From: Octopus vulgaris
Taxonomy: Eukaryota
Direction: 5' to 3'
Length of the DNA stretch: 64,000 nucleotides
Assembly: GCA_951406725.2 (NCBI GenBank)
Contig: OX597814.1
Location: forward strand, 10,664,001 to 10,728,000
Notes under the pieces: generated by a model
What the model was told of the DNA's origin: nothing
What the model saw: the letters and a program-made list of their open reading frames with translations, nothing else
Database searches by the model: none
Program-made: the position numbers and the translations under genes
Shown here: positions 2,484 to 61,044 of the stretch, piece after piece
Layout of the letters: every line of letters starts with the position of its first letter
Numbering within the stretch: position 1 is the first letter of the stretch

Positions 2484-4317
2484 AATTTTCTCACCGTTCC
2501 GAGCATCAAACTCATATACCTACTTATTGTTTATACACCTGTCTTCGTCATTTGTTTTTCTGTAAATTTCAGCTATATGTATAGTTGAAATCCACGGTGA
2601 GGCGATAACGAGGACACGAAACAGACAGATCAGCTGAAACACTGATATGATAATTTGATCGTGATAATGAGTATGAATGAGTGTGAACTTAGGAATAATT
2701 GCAATTGATTGAAAGGGTAAATTAATTTGTATGCGCGTGTTTCTATGTGTATACGTTCATGTCTCTGTGTGTGTGCGTGTGTAGGTGTGTGTGTGTGTCT
2801 GAGACGGTGGCGTTGAAGGTGCTTTCGAGAAATGTACATTAATATGTTGTGAAAGCGGTTCACATCTGTTTTTAAAAATCAGTGCGAAAATTTATCACAA
2901 TGTTACGGTGGCGGAGATTTAGTATGGAAGAGAATTCGTTACGGACGTGCTAAAACATCTCATCAGCACAGATAATGAAAACTTTGAGATACTGCTAGAA
3001 TATTTACTGAGAAACAATGAAGCAAAATAATGAAAATTTACTGAAATGACGTTGGGTGAGTTAGTGTGACCTGGTGTGACGACATTTCATTCATTGTGGT
3101 CAGCGTATTGTCTTTCACTCCGCTAATCTGTGAGGCTTCATTTTCTTTCTTGTTTCGCAGCGTTTTAATTGGTTTTATTTGAAATGCTTCATACATAGTA
3201 AATGTTTTGTTGTTGTGCTTCTAGTTAAACTCGAATTATAGGCGACGGGCTGAACATCTCCGTATAAACCTATATGATCCATTTGTTTCTCTTCCACTCC
3301 CGCCACGCTTCACCCTGTCCTTTAACCTTAGAACTTCTAAATCCACTAAAATATCCTTCCTGTTCTCGTTTTCCCGACCTGCAATTATATAGATATGCCG
3401 AAATTGATAATAAAATTTCTCAGTTTTGGAGGGTTTGAATATTTTACGAGCTCTGTCTCACTGTCATTTATTAACTTCAATTTTTTTTTAAATTTCATAA
3501 AAGTATCAGGAAGAAATGAACAAGGAATTTGAACTATTTTAAGATTAAATTAAATATCTGTAAACAAACATTTAGATTAGCTCAAATATGTTTGGGACAT
3601 ATTTGACTTGTATAAAAGTACATTCGTTGCTGTTTCTCGTTGAGAATTCTCGCTTTAGGCAATAAATGTTGAAAACACCAGTACTTTCAAGGCACCCTCT
3701 AGTGGAAGCGTGTTTACTATGATATATTACTCAAGTTGTGATCGGCATGGAATGTAATCAATTTTGATGCAGATTCACAGTAAGGAAATGAATCTTTCCA
3801 AAGCCATCTCAGGGTCGTCTCTTTTGCAGAAAAAGAATCTAGAAATGCATGCACCACTCCGCCAAAAGGTGCCTTGAAATTACTGCTCATATTTATTACC
3901 AACTATTTCCTAAAACGAGAATTTTCGACGGCAAAGAGCAATGAATACGGCTTTTGTGCAAGTGGAAATGCCCCAAACATATTCGAACTGTCGCAATGTT
4001 TCATTAATTGCAACACTGCTTTCGCGTAACTACTACAATATAATTTCCATAGTTAACATAATATTGTAAAAATAAAACTCGAACATAGAAATTAACAAAA
4101 CATTATACCTGTTTTTAGTTTTCTAATTCCTGCAGCCCACAACAGAGAATGCCGTGTTTAAGCATCGATGAGTGCGAAGTAAATGAAAAGAAAAATCCAG
4201 GCATTTGGAGAATGTTTCTTCGAGGAAAGAGAACATATTCATGTGGGATACTATTCTATTCATCCTAGGGTTACTGTGAACTGCTGGATGATTACTACAG
4301 AAAATGAGAGAGGATAA

Positions 4318-5663: not shown

Positions 5664-8093
<2,430 letters not shown>

Positions 8094-8121
8094 GGATAGA
8101 TAGATGGATGCAGGTATGCAT

Positions 8122-8222
<101 letters not shown>

Positions 8223-8785
8223 CTTAAAACCGCACACTGTAGTTTTTACGTTTCATATAAGACAGTAAAACAAAGAGACAAAGAACTACGTCATACGAAA
8301 GAAAAAACCTGTGCATTATTTATCATTAATTTATACGATCATGTTACTGTCGAAACAAAATGTATATATTACACCAGGTTGATATTAGATACAGAATAAT
8401 CATGGGCTCATTTGCCTGAGAAAAGAAGGTCAAGTATTGTAACGGCTGAGGGTGTTTGCGTATCTTTGTACTGGTGTGGCGTTTATGGTATACTATGGAC
8501 ACAGAATATCTGTCTTTCTTAATCGAAAATTGGCAATAAGTTACTTTTTCGCGTAATTTATGTTGCCAATGCCGTTGGAAATTTCAGTAATGGTCACCAC
8601 AAGGTATCCTTTACATTAAACGCTAAATGTGCGTACTTGTGTTTCTCGTCAAAATATCTCCGTAACAGTTGGACGTTGAGGTATTTCGTTGTAGCTTCGA
8701 ACTAATTCTGGTACGAAGACGTATGACTAAAAGCGGTAAAGAGAAAAACGCGTTACATTTCTAAGAAACCAAACGAAATAGACCG

Positions 8786-27933: not shown

Positions 27934-28028
27934 ATCCAAACATGAAAACACAAGGAGAAAACAACAACGCGAGGACGTGGAACAAGTATAATTTTATTGG
28001 ACGCCCAGGAAGGAAGGAAAGAAGGAGG

Positions 28029-28063
28029 GTTTAACGTTTCGCGCGGAGCTCTTCGTCAGAAAC
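28029..28063 (-). ncRNA. ultra-minimal hammerhead-like motif
   Basis: gttt-CTGACGA-agagctccgcgc-GAAAC-GTT-aaac. Stem I is gttt/aaac and stem III is reduced to the AACGTT palindrome. Confidence 0.6.
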
Positions 28064-28169
28064 ATAGGAAAAGGAAAAGGAAAGATCCAAAGAAGGGAAG
28101 ACCGAGGGAAAAAAATCTCCAACGGTACATATACATATATACATATATATGTATATATATACATACATA

Positions 28170-31228: not shown

Positions 31229-31583
31229 TAGCGTGGCTGTGTAGTAAGAAGCTTGCTTCCCAACCCCATGGTTCCCGGTTCAGTTCCACTGCGTGATACT
31301 TTGGGCCGACCAAAGCCTTGTGAGTGAATTTCGTAGACGAAAATTGAAAGAAACCCGTCGTATGTGTGTGTATGTTTTGTGTCTGTGTTTGTCCTTCCAT
31401 TACCGCTTGACAACTGGTGTTGGTGTGTTTACATCCCCGTAAGTTAGCGGTTCGGCAAAAATTTCTGAAAGAATAAATACTAAGTTTAATTTAATAAGTT
31501 TTGATTTCGATTTGTTCGACTAAAACCTTTCAAGGCGGTGCTCCAGCATGGCTGCAATCTAATGACAGAAACAAGTAAAAGAA
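31229..31583 (+). mobile_element. SINE family 2, tail interrupted by a palindromic insertion
   Basis: gcgtggctgtgtagtaag...ggcggtgctccagcatggc...gaaacaagtaaaag. Confidence 0.9.
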
Positions 31584-31763
31584 CATTATTTACATTATTT
31601 ACATTTGACGGATATTTGTTCTCATCTTGTTTGTTGTTAACACTCGAAAAATTCAAGCCAGCAGTTAACAACAAACAAGATGAGGACAAATATCCGTCAA
31701 ATGTAAATAATGTAAATAATGTAAATAATGTACATAATTCCTCATCTCTTAAATATAGAACTG
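31584..31763. mobile_element. palindromic mini-insertion with 12-bp target-site duplication
   Basis: Arms cattatttacatttgacggatatttgttctcatcttgtttgttgttaac and its reverse complement. caagtaaaagaa is duplicated at 31572-31583 and 31764-31775. Confidence 0.85.
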
Positions 31764-39330: not shown

Positions 39331-40433
39331 TTAAGTATTGTCACCGATTTGTTCGACAAAATTTCTTCAAGCATGGGCGCAGTAAAAATGACTGAAACAT
39401 ATAAAGGATAAAAAGATGTACGATACATGTATATAAGTACATATGTACGTATATATGTTCTTATATGTTCATATAAGTGCATTTGTATGTATGTGTGTAT
39501 GTATGTATGTATCATGCGCGGGGACATAGAAATAATCGGACTGAATACCCGATCGCGTGGTTAAACCATTGGGAGTGAAGGACTCCTAGACTTTTTTAGG
39601 GCATCCTTCTAGGAGAAGGTAACTCAGGTAACTGGGATAACTCCGACATAAAACCTGCGGCTCAGTGGTTACCGATGATGTTGATTTGTTCTTCTTTTCG
39701 GTTTATGGCTGCTGTTGCTTAGTGAGTGGAATTGACTCAGTGCACAGCCTTTCCTCACTTTAAAAAAAAATATTTGTGCATCTTTGTGCTTCTTCCCCCA
39801 TCACAGTTTGACAACCGATATTGGTGTATCTACATTCCTGCAAGCCTCGGCAAAAAGAGACTGATAGAATAAGCAGTAGGCTTAAGAAATAAGTCTCGGG
39901 GTTGATTTGTTCTACTGAAACTCTTCAAGGCGGTACTCCAGCGTGGCCACCGCAGTGAAAATGACTGAAACAATTAAAAGAATAAAATAGCCTGAAATAC
40001 ACTGGCGAAAATAAATTTAAGGCCGATGATAAAATGTGTATTTCTTACAAAATATTTTGTTACTAACACCATACAAATTATTTTTATCTTTTACACCTTA
40101 TGCAAAATTTATTTCTCTTTCGAATGATGCAGACAATAACTATTTTTTTATACAACTTGAAGAATTCTAATGCTAAATTAATATAAACGTTTCAAATTTA
40201 CCGGTAATTTCGCCGGTATATGTTGACATAAATCAGTAATACACAAAACGAATAAAAGAATACATAAAATGTATAAAGAAAGAATCAAATTAATATATTT
40301 ATTAACAAATTCAAAATCAATACATGGCTAAGTGAGAAAGTGTCTTATGAGGTGGTTTGTATATTTCTGATTAGGAAGAGCAAACTAACAGCTACTGCTG
40401 TAGTAAAAGTGGGCGTGTCCTACTGAGTTTGTC

Positions 40434-54264: not shown

Positions 54265-54654
54265 TATGTGTGTGTATATATATATATATATATATTTATA
54301 TATTGATTTATATATTTATATACTTAGATACTCTTTTTATATTCTTATATCTTTTTTATATATTTAAACATTTTTTACTCTTTTGATACTTTGAAATTTT
54401 TGCTCTTTTACTACCTTTTGCAACCACCACCCTCCCTCTTTGTGATCCCTAACTCACTAAAGGTTCAACCCTCCCCCCAACCCCCTCCCTCTCTATCTCA
54501 ACATCCAATCTTCCTCATTCTACATCGAGTGAGAGACGAGATGGACGCTTCACTTTTGTGCTGGTGCCCCACCCTGTCGTACGCGACTGTGAAGATTTGC
54601 ATCCCCAACGTAAAACTTATAATGTAATACATGTCCTTGAAGTAGTAATAGTAC

Positions 54655-54732
54655 GCGGCTGAAGAAGGCCATAGACACACATTATGCATTGTTATAAATC
54701 CGTCTAATAAAGGCCCGAAACATATGTACCGC
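54655..54732 (+). ncRNA. minimal type-I hammerhead ribozyme
   Basis: gcgg-CTGAAGA-a-ggcc(atagac..gtcta..)ggcc-c-GAAAC-atat-GTA-ccgc. Stem I is gcgg/ccgc, the core is complete, and the stem III loop is palindromic. Confidence 0.85.
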
Positions 54733-54836
54733 TGAATCATTGGCATCATGTTTTTATTTTGATTAATATACTCTACCACCTACACCGCTAAATGGTAAAT
54801 ACAGGTGCTAACAATTATCAAGTATTCACCCTGAAT

Positions 54837-54927
<91 letters not shown>

Positions 54928-54939
54928 AGTATATATGTG

Positions 54940-54975
<36 letters not shown>

Positions 54976-55017
54976 GGAAAAAAATAGGAAAAAAAGCAAC
55001 AAGAATGGATTAAAATC

Positions 55018-55101
55018 TCGGTACGATCGTTTCGTACGAGGACATCTTTAATAAGCTACAAAAAATGCAGTGAATACAGATGGCTCGTACTCGTCAGCCG
55101 A
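55018..55101 (-). ncRNA. minimal type-I hammerhead ribozyme (inverted copy of 55832-55915)
   Basis: Reverse-complement copy in the left arm of the inverted repeat. Confidence 0.9.
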
Positions 55102-55831
55102 AAAAATATCAGAGAATTCCCAAACATCAAAAGGGGTAGATACAAAAGAGGTTGTAAGATTAACTGCATTGAAGAAAGTTCGATTCATGGAGATCCGATG
55201 AAAGGTTTTAAACCTATAGAATTTATGCATGTCTACATATAGCTCATATTGAATATTTGATCAAGTTGTATGAAGAAATTTTCGGATACAGTCATGCAAA
55301 ATTTCTGAAAATCCGAGTAAGAGGCAAAGTGACTGCCACATCATGTAGAGGAAAGTCTGAGTAAAAACATAGTGACTGTCATATCGTGTAGAGGAACAGA
55401 TTGTTATTGAAATTTACAAGAATCGCAGATAAGTTCGATTTTTTGGAGATCCGATGAAAAAGTCTTGAACTTACAAAATTTGTGTATGTCCTTATAGTTC
55501 GTAATCCAGTTTTGTGGAGAGATTTAGGGTACAATCATGCGAAAATATCAGGGAGTCCGAATGAGAAGCAAAAATGACAGTCTTATATTGTAGTGGTTCA
55601 GGTTGTTAATGAAATTTCGGATTTTCAGAAATTTTGCATGACTGTATCCGAAAATTTCTTCATACAACTTGATCAAATATTCAATATGAGCTATATGTAG
55701 ACATGCATAAATTCTATAGGTTTAAAACCTTTCATCGGATCTCCATGAATCGAACTTTCTTCAATGCAGTTAATCTGACAACCTCTTTTGTATCTACCCC
55801 TTTTGATGTTTGGGAATTCTCTGATATTTTT

Positions 55832-55915
55832 TCGGCTGACGAGTACGAGCCATCTGTATTCACTGCATTTTTTGTAGCTTATTAAAGATGTCCTCGTACG
55901 AAACGATCGTACCGA
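55832..55915 (+). ncRNA. minimal type-I hammerhead ribozyme
   Basis: tcgg-CTGACGA-gtacgag...ctcgtac-GAAAC-gatc-GTA-ccga, with a perfect core and stems I and II. Confidence 0.9.
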
Positions 55916-56097
55916 GATTTTAATCCATTCTTGTTGCTTTTTTTCCTATTTATAATCACCCCACTTGTCGTATGGTTAACACCATATAGATATCCGGTGC
56001 ATCCTAGTTAAGGACCATATTCATGTGAATTCTTTAGAATTCACTTGAATCTCAATTACTTAACCGAATATATATATACATATATATATATATACAT

Positions 56098-56146
<49 letters not shown>

Positions 56147-56149
56147 CAT

Positions 56150-56698
56150 GTTGGCTGCCCCCTCATTATCGAGTATGCCCATTGCACGAAGCTTAATCAG
56201 TGTTGTTATCTTGCAATATCTGTGCAAGAAGATTTTCTTAAAGTTAGGAAAGGCTGTGCACTGAGTCAATCCCACTCACTAAGCAACAGCAGCCATAATC
56301 CGAAAAGAACAAGTCAACATCATCGGTAACCACTGAGCCGCAGGTTTTATATCGGAGTTATTCCAGTTACCTGAGTTACCTTCTCCTAGAGGGATGCCCT
56401 AACAAAGGCTAGGAGTCCTTCACTCCCAATGGTTAAACCGCGCGATCGGGTATTCAGTCCGATTATTTCTATGTCCCCGCGCATGATACAGCCTTAAAGC
56501 ATTTATTGGATGGCCGTTGACTCTCAAGAGTTCCTCCGCCCTTTGATGGGTTTTGTTTTTCATCCCGCGGGGTGTCCAATAAACACCTTCCTCACCAAGC
56601 AAGCTTGGTGGGGTTGCCGGTTTAGTCGCCGACGACCCGGCCATGCAACAGATTGTACTGGGTTATACGTTACCAGTAGCACTCGAAAGTGACCTGAC
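56150..56698 (-). mobile_element. non-autonomous element with RTE-clade 5'UTR-like sequence (partial copy 39510-39765 +)
   Basis: About 250 bp is shared between the two loci. gggcatccctctaggagaaggtaactc resembles a motif found in RTE 5' regions. There is no credible ORF. Confidence 0.65.
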
Positions 56699-58763: not shown

Positions 58764-59193
<430 letters not shown>

Positions 59194-59241
59194 CTATTTT
59201 TTATACATACAAACACGTGCTTTCATATACCAACTTTCTCA

Positions 59242-60325: not shown

Positions 60326-60387
<62 letters not shown>

Positions 60388-60438
60388 CATTGAAGAAATG
60401 GAGTTGAACGAAGATTGAACAGAAATCGTTTTATTGCA

Positions 60439-60518
60439 TTCTACACGTGTTTCGAAAGCCACAATTTACCAAATTCCGATTGAATAAGGAGACCATATTG
60501 TGTCTTTCTCTTCAGGAA
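60439..60518 (-). ncRNA. minimal type-I hammerhead ribozyme (mirror copy of 60650-60729)
   Basis: Lies in the left arm of a perfect palindrome. Confidence 0.87.
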
Positions 60519-60649
60519 GAAATAGGAATTCCGTTGGCAAAAACAAAAACAGAACAGAGGCGCAGCAAAACAAATCGAACGAGGCTCGTTCGATTTGTTT
60601 TGCTGCGCCTCTGTTCTGTTTTTGTTTTTGCCAACGGAATTCCTATTTC

Positions 60650-60729
60650 TTCCTGAAGAGAAAGACACAATATGGTCTCCTTATTCAATCGGAATTTGGT
60701 AAATTGTGGCTTTCGAAACACGTGTAGAA
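60650..60729 (+). ncRNA. minimal type-I hammerhead ribozyme
   Basis: ttc-CTGAAGA-gaaagacacaat...attgtggctttc-GAAAC-acgt-GTA-gaa. Confidence 0.87.
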
Positions 60730-60941
60730 TGCAATAAAACGATTTCTGTTCAATCTTCGTTCAACTCCATTTCTTCAATGCACTAATAATATTAAAATTC
60801 AATTATCCGCACCAACGCACGGGTGCAACACCATATGGGTGTACCTCCAACCGTGCTGTCTTCTGCTGTGATTTTTGCTACCAAGGTATCGGTTAAACTT
60901 TTGATTAATCTGCAACAAGATTATTCATCTTTCTATTTCAC

Positions 60942-61044
<103 letters not shown>

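Follow-up and report, generated by a model that had tools for sequence, protein, structure and literature searches.

A stretch of 64,000 nucleotides of Octopus vulgaris DNA (contig OX597814.1; referred to as the window) holds, between two (TA)n tracts, a long inverted repeat with a hammerhead ribozyme in each arm. The question raised by this locus is whether the arms are the fixed ends of a mobile element or came to face each other when the sequence was inserted. A first-pass annotation had described an element with inverted ribozyme-bearing terminal repeats. That description is not supported: two copies were truncated separately, and the arms are what they have in common. Its accompanying suspicion that the sequence is probably retro-derived, and not a MITE, is supported. 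The family runs on past the junction between the copies and also outside the right arm. Very probably, the unit is one insertion of a multi-copy, hammerhead-bearing retroelement of the Penelope-like element (PLE) type, consisting of two 5'-truncated copies that lie head to head inside (TA)n. As such, it belongs to the insertion products already described for Penelope-like elements; it is no new element bounded by ribozymes. The assignment to PLEs is based on the anatomy of the unit and on the type of its ribozyme.

Anatomy of the unit and of its family

The unit and the target microsatellites on either side of it (54842-56146) comprise the following parts, with positions counted along the window.

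54842..54972, no strand: left target microsatellite, made of (TA)n and containing a (TG)n patch (period 2, 66 copies, 54842-54975)
54973..54994, minus strand: duplication of an 11-nt unit at the 3' end of the left copy, missing from the right copy
54984..55616, minus strand: long 5'-truncated copy of 633 nt, comprising the left arm and the entire spacer; stops 38 nt past the ribozyme cut site
55016..55103, minus strand: the left copy's type I hammerhead, with its core at 55097
55176..55431, minus strand: unit A of the internal repeat, about 255 nt long; lies upstream of the ribozyme when read in the sense direction and has no ribozyme itself
55432..55616, minus strand: unit B of the internal repeat, 70-77% like unit A; their alignment has several 1-nt gaps
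55611..55618, no strand: point at which the two copies meet head to head (55616/55617); it carries an 8-bp palindrome, and the shared sequence is no longer than about 1 nt
55617..56067, plus strand: short 5'-truncated copy of 451 nt, comprising the right arm and the extension
55830..55917, plus strand: type I hammerhead of the right copy
55952..56067, plus strand: one-sided, tail-like 3' extension of 115-116 nt with two hairpins
56068..56146, no strand: right target microsatellite, (TA)n

The two arms (54982-55316 and 55617-55951) are each 335 nt long and lie 300 nt apart. They are 99.7% alike, with a single mismatch (55156 versus 55777) at which the left arm carries the letter commonest in public sequencing runs; the size of the repeat and the near identity of its arms had been recognized correctly from the start. 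The limits first drawn around the repeat (54982..55951) are too small, since the 11-nt terminal duplication (54973-54994) and the 115-nt extension (55952-56067) also belong to the unit. Read in the sense of the ribozymes, the minus-strand copy runs from 55616 to 54984 and then into the 11-nt duplication, the plus-strand copy runs from 55617 to 56067, and the two meet with their 5' ends. At its 5' end the long copy exceeds the short one by 300 nt, at its 3' end the short copy exceeds the long one by 115 nt, and the inverted repeat is what the two have in common. Each copy thus contains family sequence that is missing from the other, and neither is therefore a plain mirror of its partner. With (TA)n on both flanks, a target duplication is not distinguishable. 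The 11-nt duplication may have arisen by slippage at priming. The 8-bp palindrome at the junction is weak evidence in AT-rich DNA.

The extension reaches 115 nt beyond the right arm, up to the (TA)n tract, and is predicted to fold into two hairpins (z = -5.2, with none of 200 shuffles equally stable); the variants found in it include no clean compensatory pair. The idea that it might be the start of a reading frame, raised by the position of four of the seven listed variants on third positions of the frame from 55972, was rejected on account of four stops, a blank homologue search and too few variants.

The spacer had been taken for a diverged copy of part of the arm, in a tandem structure of ~250 bp, and this is borne out: 55431-55572 is 70.5% identical to 55176-55328 (blastn, E 9e-12), and 129 of 167 aligned letters match in a local alignment of units A and B, with several 1-nt gaps. 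The tandem unit carries no ribozyme. Since unit B is covered, with family-level variants, in all four of the sequencing runs compared, it is family-wide and not specific to this locus. A coding origin of this upstream region was also considered, as the three codon phases have 7/11/20 of the mismatches between A and B, and as one sense frame extends over 121 codons with one stop. It was set aside because the phase count crosses 1-nt gaps, because the family often shows indels of 1 nt, and because neither Pfam nor homologue searches gave a match; the region upstream of the ribozyme is left as non-coding.

The spacer, right arm and right-hand sequence (55317-56066) were compared with the contigs of four public runs (X1, X3, X6 and X9) out of 24 listed. 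Words of this stretch are present in 20 of the 24 runs, 16 of which hold half of the words or more; 10 studies and four organism labels are represented, and one of the runs may be that of the source sample. The aligned contigs number 877, 573, 368 and 63 in the four runs, cover 30 of 30 bins in each run and show dozens of variant letters. Such contig numbers, together with the many variants, indicate a multi-copy family, the depth not being a copy number. Within the 64-kb window, no further copy of the family was found.

The same contigs bear on whether the inversion point is fixed or variable, a distinction drawn in the first-pass annotation. The outcome leans to variable: behind 55615, one contig each in X1, X3 and X9 continues with a common other sequence for 31-82 letters, and a contig in X6 has 27 letters unaligned past 55617, so that other copies of the family are not inverted at 55616/55617. 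Loose ends before 55617 match the reverse complement of 55317 onward in all four runs, which makes arm and spacer continuous, with the reservation that the left arm of the locus itself would give such ends too. An opposite-strand joint 55317/55620, seen in one contig of X9, fits the same continuity. Contigs bridge 55951/55952 in X1, X3 and X6, and 55952-56066 is therefore family sequence. Among the 32 of 1904 pieces and 24 of 146 loose ends listed, none bridges the junction 55616/55617 with 31 letters on each side. A 2030-nt contig of X9, possibly an RNA run, starts in the extension (aligned to 55971-56061, with 14 differences and no gaps) and continues for about 1.9 kb; it may represent either a host transcript or the main part of some related element.

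The hammerhead ribozymes

The core CTGACGA is found at 55836 on the plus strand and is mirrored at 55097 on the minus strand; as first reported, there is a hammerhead in each arm, and both point outward, with their 3' ends to the outside. The right hammerhead is built from a 6-bp stem I (55830-35/55912-17), the core (55836-42) and a 7-bp stem II (55843-49/55893-99) with G10.1-C11.1, followed by GAAA (55900-03) and a palindromic helix III (55904-09; GAAA-CGATCG-TA). The triplet GUA occupies 55909-55911, and the cut is predicted to fall after 55911. Helix III has 2 bp (A-U and C-G) around a palindromic loop, and loop II contains a 43-nt insert. The earlier wording of 'textbook' hammerheads is too strong, given the 2-bp helix III, the insert in loop II and the lack of an Rfam hit: no Rfam hammerhead family matched the window at gathering score, and at E values up to 10 the stretch 55600-56070 gave a single match, to a microRNA model (E 2.9), and no hammerhead. 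On the other hand, none of 2000 dinucleotide shuffles of 55317-56066 contained such a motif, and the 101-nt hammerhead fold has z = -3.5. Ribozyme pattern scans of metagenome, viral and genome contig sets returned no matches, which is expected for a eukaryotic repeat and counts as neutral evidence.

The ribozymes share with the PLE hammerheads of PMC4209133 type I topology, a helix II of 7 bp, G10.1-C11.1, a palindromic 15.2-16.2 region and the occurrence of pairs on opposite strands. The cores are 739 nt apart here, against 100-700 bp in that paper. Unlike the consensus given there, the present ribozymes lack the unpaired base between positions 9 and 10.1, carry the large loop II insert and have a helix I of 6 bp.

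Eight of the 40 listed variant positions fall within the 88-nt ribozyme, two of them in loop III, five in the insert of loop II, and one at the variable base 7. None of the eight touches the 40 constrained positions, for which a naive P of 0.006 is obtained within the span if relatedness of the copies is ignored; the same test over the whole 750 nt gives P = 0.11, which is not significant, and 12 further variant rows lie outside the listed 40. The two loop III positions, 55905 and 55908, vary in matching numbers of contigs (32/33, 21/20, 13/13 and 2/2 in the four runs), and helix III stays palindromic throughout. Such paired variation suggests selection for a dimeric ribozyme.

In folding calculations, two copies co-fold through the helix III palindrome into an 8-bp duplex (-60.4 versus 2 x -27.2 kcal/mol), as in the double-hammerhead arrangement of PMC4209133, and the hammerhead would probably work as a dimer, on tandem transcripts. 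When a single copy is folded as a 450-nt RNA, stem II forms with p 0.93-0.98 and stem I only with p 0.02-0.03. At the locus itself, each strand has one sense ribozyme only, transcribed after its own complement. Read-through RNA pairs 334 of the 335 arm bases, and it would take 127.5 kcal/mol to impose stems I and II on it. According to these models, read-through RNA would bury the ribozyme in a 334-bp duplex, and the ribozyme at this locus would be a passenger; cleavage activity is predicted for tandem source transcripts. If the locus is transcribed, the resulting 334-bp double-stranded RNA might serve as a substrate for editing or for small-RNA silencing.

Origin of the head-to-head arrangement

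The unit displays a number of traits of PLEs. These are a type I hammerhead near the 3' end, with a long helix II and a small palindromic helix III; 5'-truncated copies with variable truncation points, the two copies being cut 300 nt apart; an adjoining inverted 5'-truncated copy in head-to-head orientation; and (TA)n targets, used here and by a second unit, in a window that is itself rich in such tracts. PMC8557442 describes an inverted 5'-truncated copy beside the insertion, a tail of 30-40 bp at one end and a (TA)n bias in some clades, while PMC3846280 gives the head-to-head arrangement as the most frequent one. In PMC4209133, hammerhead pairs 100-700 bp apart on opposite strands are regarded as probable truncated PLEs, and a small palindromic helix III is described. 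The insertion units of endonuclease-positive (EN+) PLEs (Penelope/Poseidon, Neptune, Nematis and Hydra; PMC8557442, PMC3846280) have in common with the present one two head-to-head 5'-truncated copies with outward 3' ends, a hammerhead near the 3' end, an extension at one end, a (TA)n target, no visible target duplication and a short palindrome at the junction.

The present unit also departs from these descriptions. Unlike in EN+ PLE units, the approximately 590 nt upstream of the ribozyme are non-coding and contain an old internal duplication, and no reverse transcriptase (RT) or endonuclease frame is linked to them. Full-length EN+ PLEs have a telomerase-like RT and a GIY-YIG endonuclease in one frame, and their longer insertions include a direct partial tandem (pseudo-LTR). 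A search for an RT or GIY-YIG frame gave no Pfam family in the eight open frames of the unit, and homologue searches of two read-through frames were blank; a truncated copy need not carry such a frame, and the earlier label 'non-autonomous' is to that extent unproven. The one-sided extension, strongly folded and 115 nt long, compares with a PLE tail of 30-40 bp in PMC8557442. Literature searches returned no title describing the family, which may already be catalogued in repeat databases.

The arrangement could have come about in the following way. A PLE endonuclease would cut both strands of AT-rich DNA, and each free end would prime reverse transcription of the element RNA. Synthesis would begin at one of two internal sites, located 38 and 156 nt behind the ribozyme cut site and thus about 115 nt from each other. 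The cDNAs would stop after about 640 and 450 nt and be joined by their ends with hardly any microhomology. The inverted repeat would then be the part present in both cDNAs, while the spacer would be what one of them has in addition on its 5' side, and the extension what the other has in addition on its 3' side. The ribozyme would belong to the pseudo-LTR of the source element, most likely cutting as a dimer on tandem transcripts. Several of these steps have a counterpart in PMC11167929, where a PLE protein, for which a dimer is predicted, is reported to cut AT-rich DNA on both strands and to extend both, reverse transcription begins at two internal sites that delimit the tail, and ribozyme cleavage is not needed for insertion in vitro. 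For head-to-head units whose junctions carry palindromes, PMC3846280 favours self-priming on an antisense template over two-ended priming. Here, the 115 nt extra on the short copy imply that a self-priming route would need a template longer than the left copy. The long folded extension offers a way to map the start of reverse transcription in a young and abundant family.

A more specific version of this reading, which we regard as rather doubtful, is that the family is a purely non-coding passenger of Penelope-like machinery, neither a tandem retrozyme nor the stump of an autonomous element, with two-ended priming from start sites more than 100 nt apart that are marked by the hairpins of the extension. 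If true, the extensions of 115 nt and roughly 160 nt in two unrelated families would represent a long-tail variant of PLE integration, one that could be mapped by comparing many copies in the genome.

Other explanations of the inverted repeat have to be weighed against the same observations. One copy might have been inserted first, the mirror arm having arisen later in DNA by fold-back synthesis or template switching; the adjacency of arms that are 99.7% alike, the 8-bp palindrome on the junction and the gapless palindrome of the second unit (60383-60785) would all agree with such a history. It is nevertheless very unlikely. The right copy has 115 nt of family sequence not present in the left copy and is without the 11-nt duplication, 300 nt of the left copy are missing from the right, and there is no complementarity between the end of the long copy and the start of the short one; such a history would call for an extra deletion. 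A non-autonomous element moving in one piece, bounded by fixed terminal inverted repeats of 335 bp that contain the ribozymes, would look much like the locus at first sight. MITEs and foldback DNA elements have a long, terminal-looking inverted repeat, are non-coding and sit at AT-rich sites; here too the arms are long and near perfect, no coding frame was found, and a TA duplication would be invisible in TA-rich flanks. Yet the arms are neither terminal nor fixed in the family: other copies continue past the junction with other sequence, the extension is family sequence that lies outside the right arm, the ends are asymmetric, and no listed contig bridges the junction. Conservation of the ribozyme moreover points to an RNA stage. 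A MITE-like origin is accordingly highly improbable. Twin priming of L1 elements likewise makes an inversion at insertion, by priming from both DNA ends, and its two parts cover different stretches of one RNA. Unlike these, both copies here hold the same 3' region, which gives the long inverted repeat, and there is no poly(A) end.

We see hardly any probability that the unit consists of inverted fragments of a non-LTR retrozyme, that is, of tandem hammerhead monomers copied from a small circular RNA. Metazoan non-LTR retrozymes, as described in PMC7229834 and 10.64898/2026.07.22.740005, resemble the present family in having a type I hammerhead, in being non-coding and of low GC, and in occurring as dispersed copies. 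The 2-bp helix III is that of invertebrate retrozymes (PMC7229834), and retrozymes have been reported to be PLE derivatives (10.64898/2026.07.22.740005). What separates the present family from those described there is the inverted layout, the lack of a direct tandem of ribozyme-bearing monomers and a unit of more than 750 nt. Indeed, the tandem unit of ~250 nt has no ribozyme, the family spans more than 750 nt without repeating its ribozyme, and no ribozyme-to-ribozyme tandem was seen in the window or among the four joints listed from the runs. An artefact of assembly or library preparation, such as a chimeric fold-back between two microsatellites, has an equally slender chance. It would be favoured by the position of a high-copy repeat between long (TA)n tracts and by the fact that no listed contig spans the junction, and PMC8557442 notes that such structures trouble assemblies. 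Against it, the arms differ at one base, where the left arm has the commonest letter of the runs, the ends differ in family-specific ways, and a second family with the same anatomy is located 4.3 kb away. An insertion of two 5'-truncated PLE-type copies head to head is thus preferred, and it carries a caution: long ribozyme-bearing 'terminal repeats' in microsatellite-rich genomes can arise at insertion.

A second unit and other features of the window

The second outward-pointing pair of hammerheads has its cores at 60515 (minus strand) and 60653 (plus strand), within a 403-nt palindrome (60383-60785), and again shows a palindromic helix III. This second unit (60383-60947) is bordered by (TA)n on the left; on the right, about 160 nt of further sequence follow before the next (TA)n tract, and from this boundary these 160 nt would appear to belong to the family of the second unit. 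The two units have no BLAST match to each other, and their sense strands are weakly alike around the ribozymes (29 of 1000 shuffles as good). That two unrelated families display one anatomy speaks for a common mechanism of insertion. Words shared by the two extensions carry no weight, their alignment being no better than that of shuffles (616 of 1000 as good), and the extension of the second unit is not clearly folded (z -1.5; 16 of 200 shuffles). Its 51 open codons in one frame have no homologue. The single phmmer match of this extension, to P0001 (E 8.7e-05, 12 stretches), a glycine-rich repeat protein without a Pfam family, was taken as chance.

The window is AT-rich and full of microsatellites, and further hammerhead-like motifs occur in it. 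A core at 54659 (54650-54735, plus strand), in which helix III is palindromic and a base following position 9 is unpaired, lies about 180 nt to the left of the flanking (TA)n and has no BLAST relative in the window. On the minus strand, a type I hammerhead-like motif at 1096 (1035-1106) has a stem I of 7 bp, a stem II of 4 bp and a longer, non-palindromic helix III; it is contained in a 345-nt stretch between (TA)n tracts, and shuffles gave 0.07 such motifs per window. A short hammerhead-like core with weak stems is present at 28059 (28015-28070, minus strand).

Some other mobile-element-like sequences were noted as well. Immediately to the right of the first unit, about 550 nt (56149-56696) with TG...CA ends between TA-rich tracts resemble a solo LTR, and 261 nt of them are 94% identical to 39508-39768 on the other strand. 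A frame of 726 codons (6043-8223, minus strand), whose non-repetitive part contains RVT_1 and zf-RVT, belongs to a 5'-truncated element of the L1/Tx1 type that starts inside a tetranucleotide repeat. An AT-rich inverted repeat at 58863-59195 (BLAST core of 104 nt, 94%), beside (TA)n and without a hammerhead core, is MITE-like, and further local inverted repeats are found at 3566-4001 and 31583-31722.
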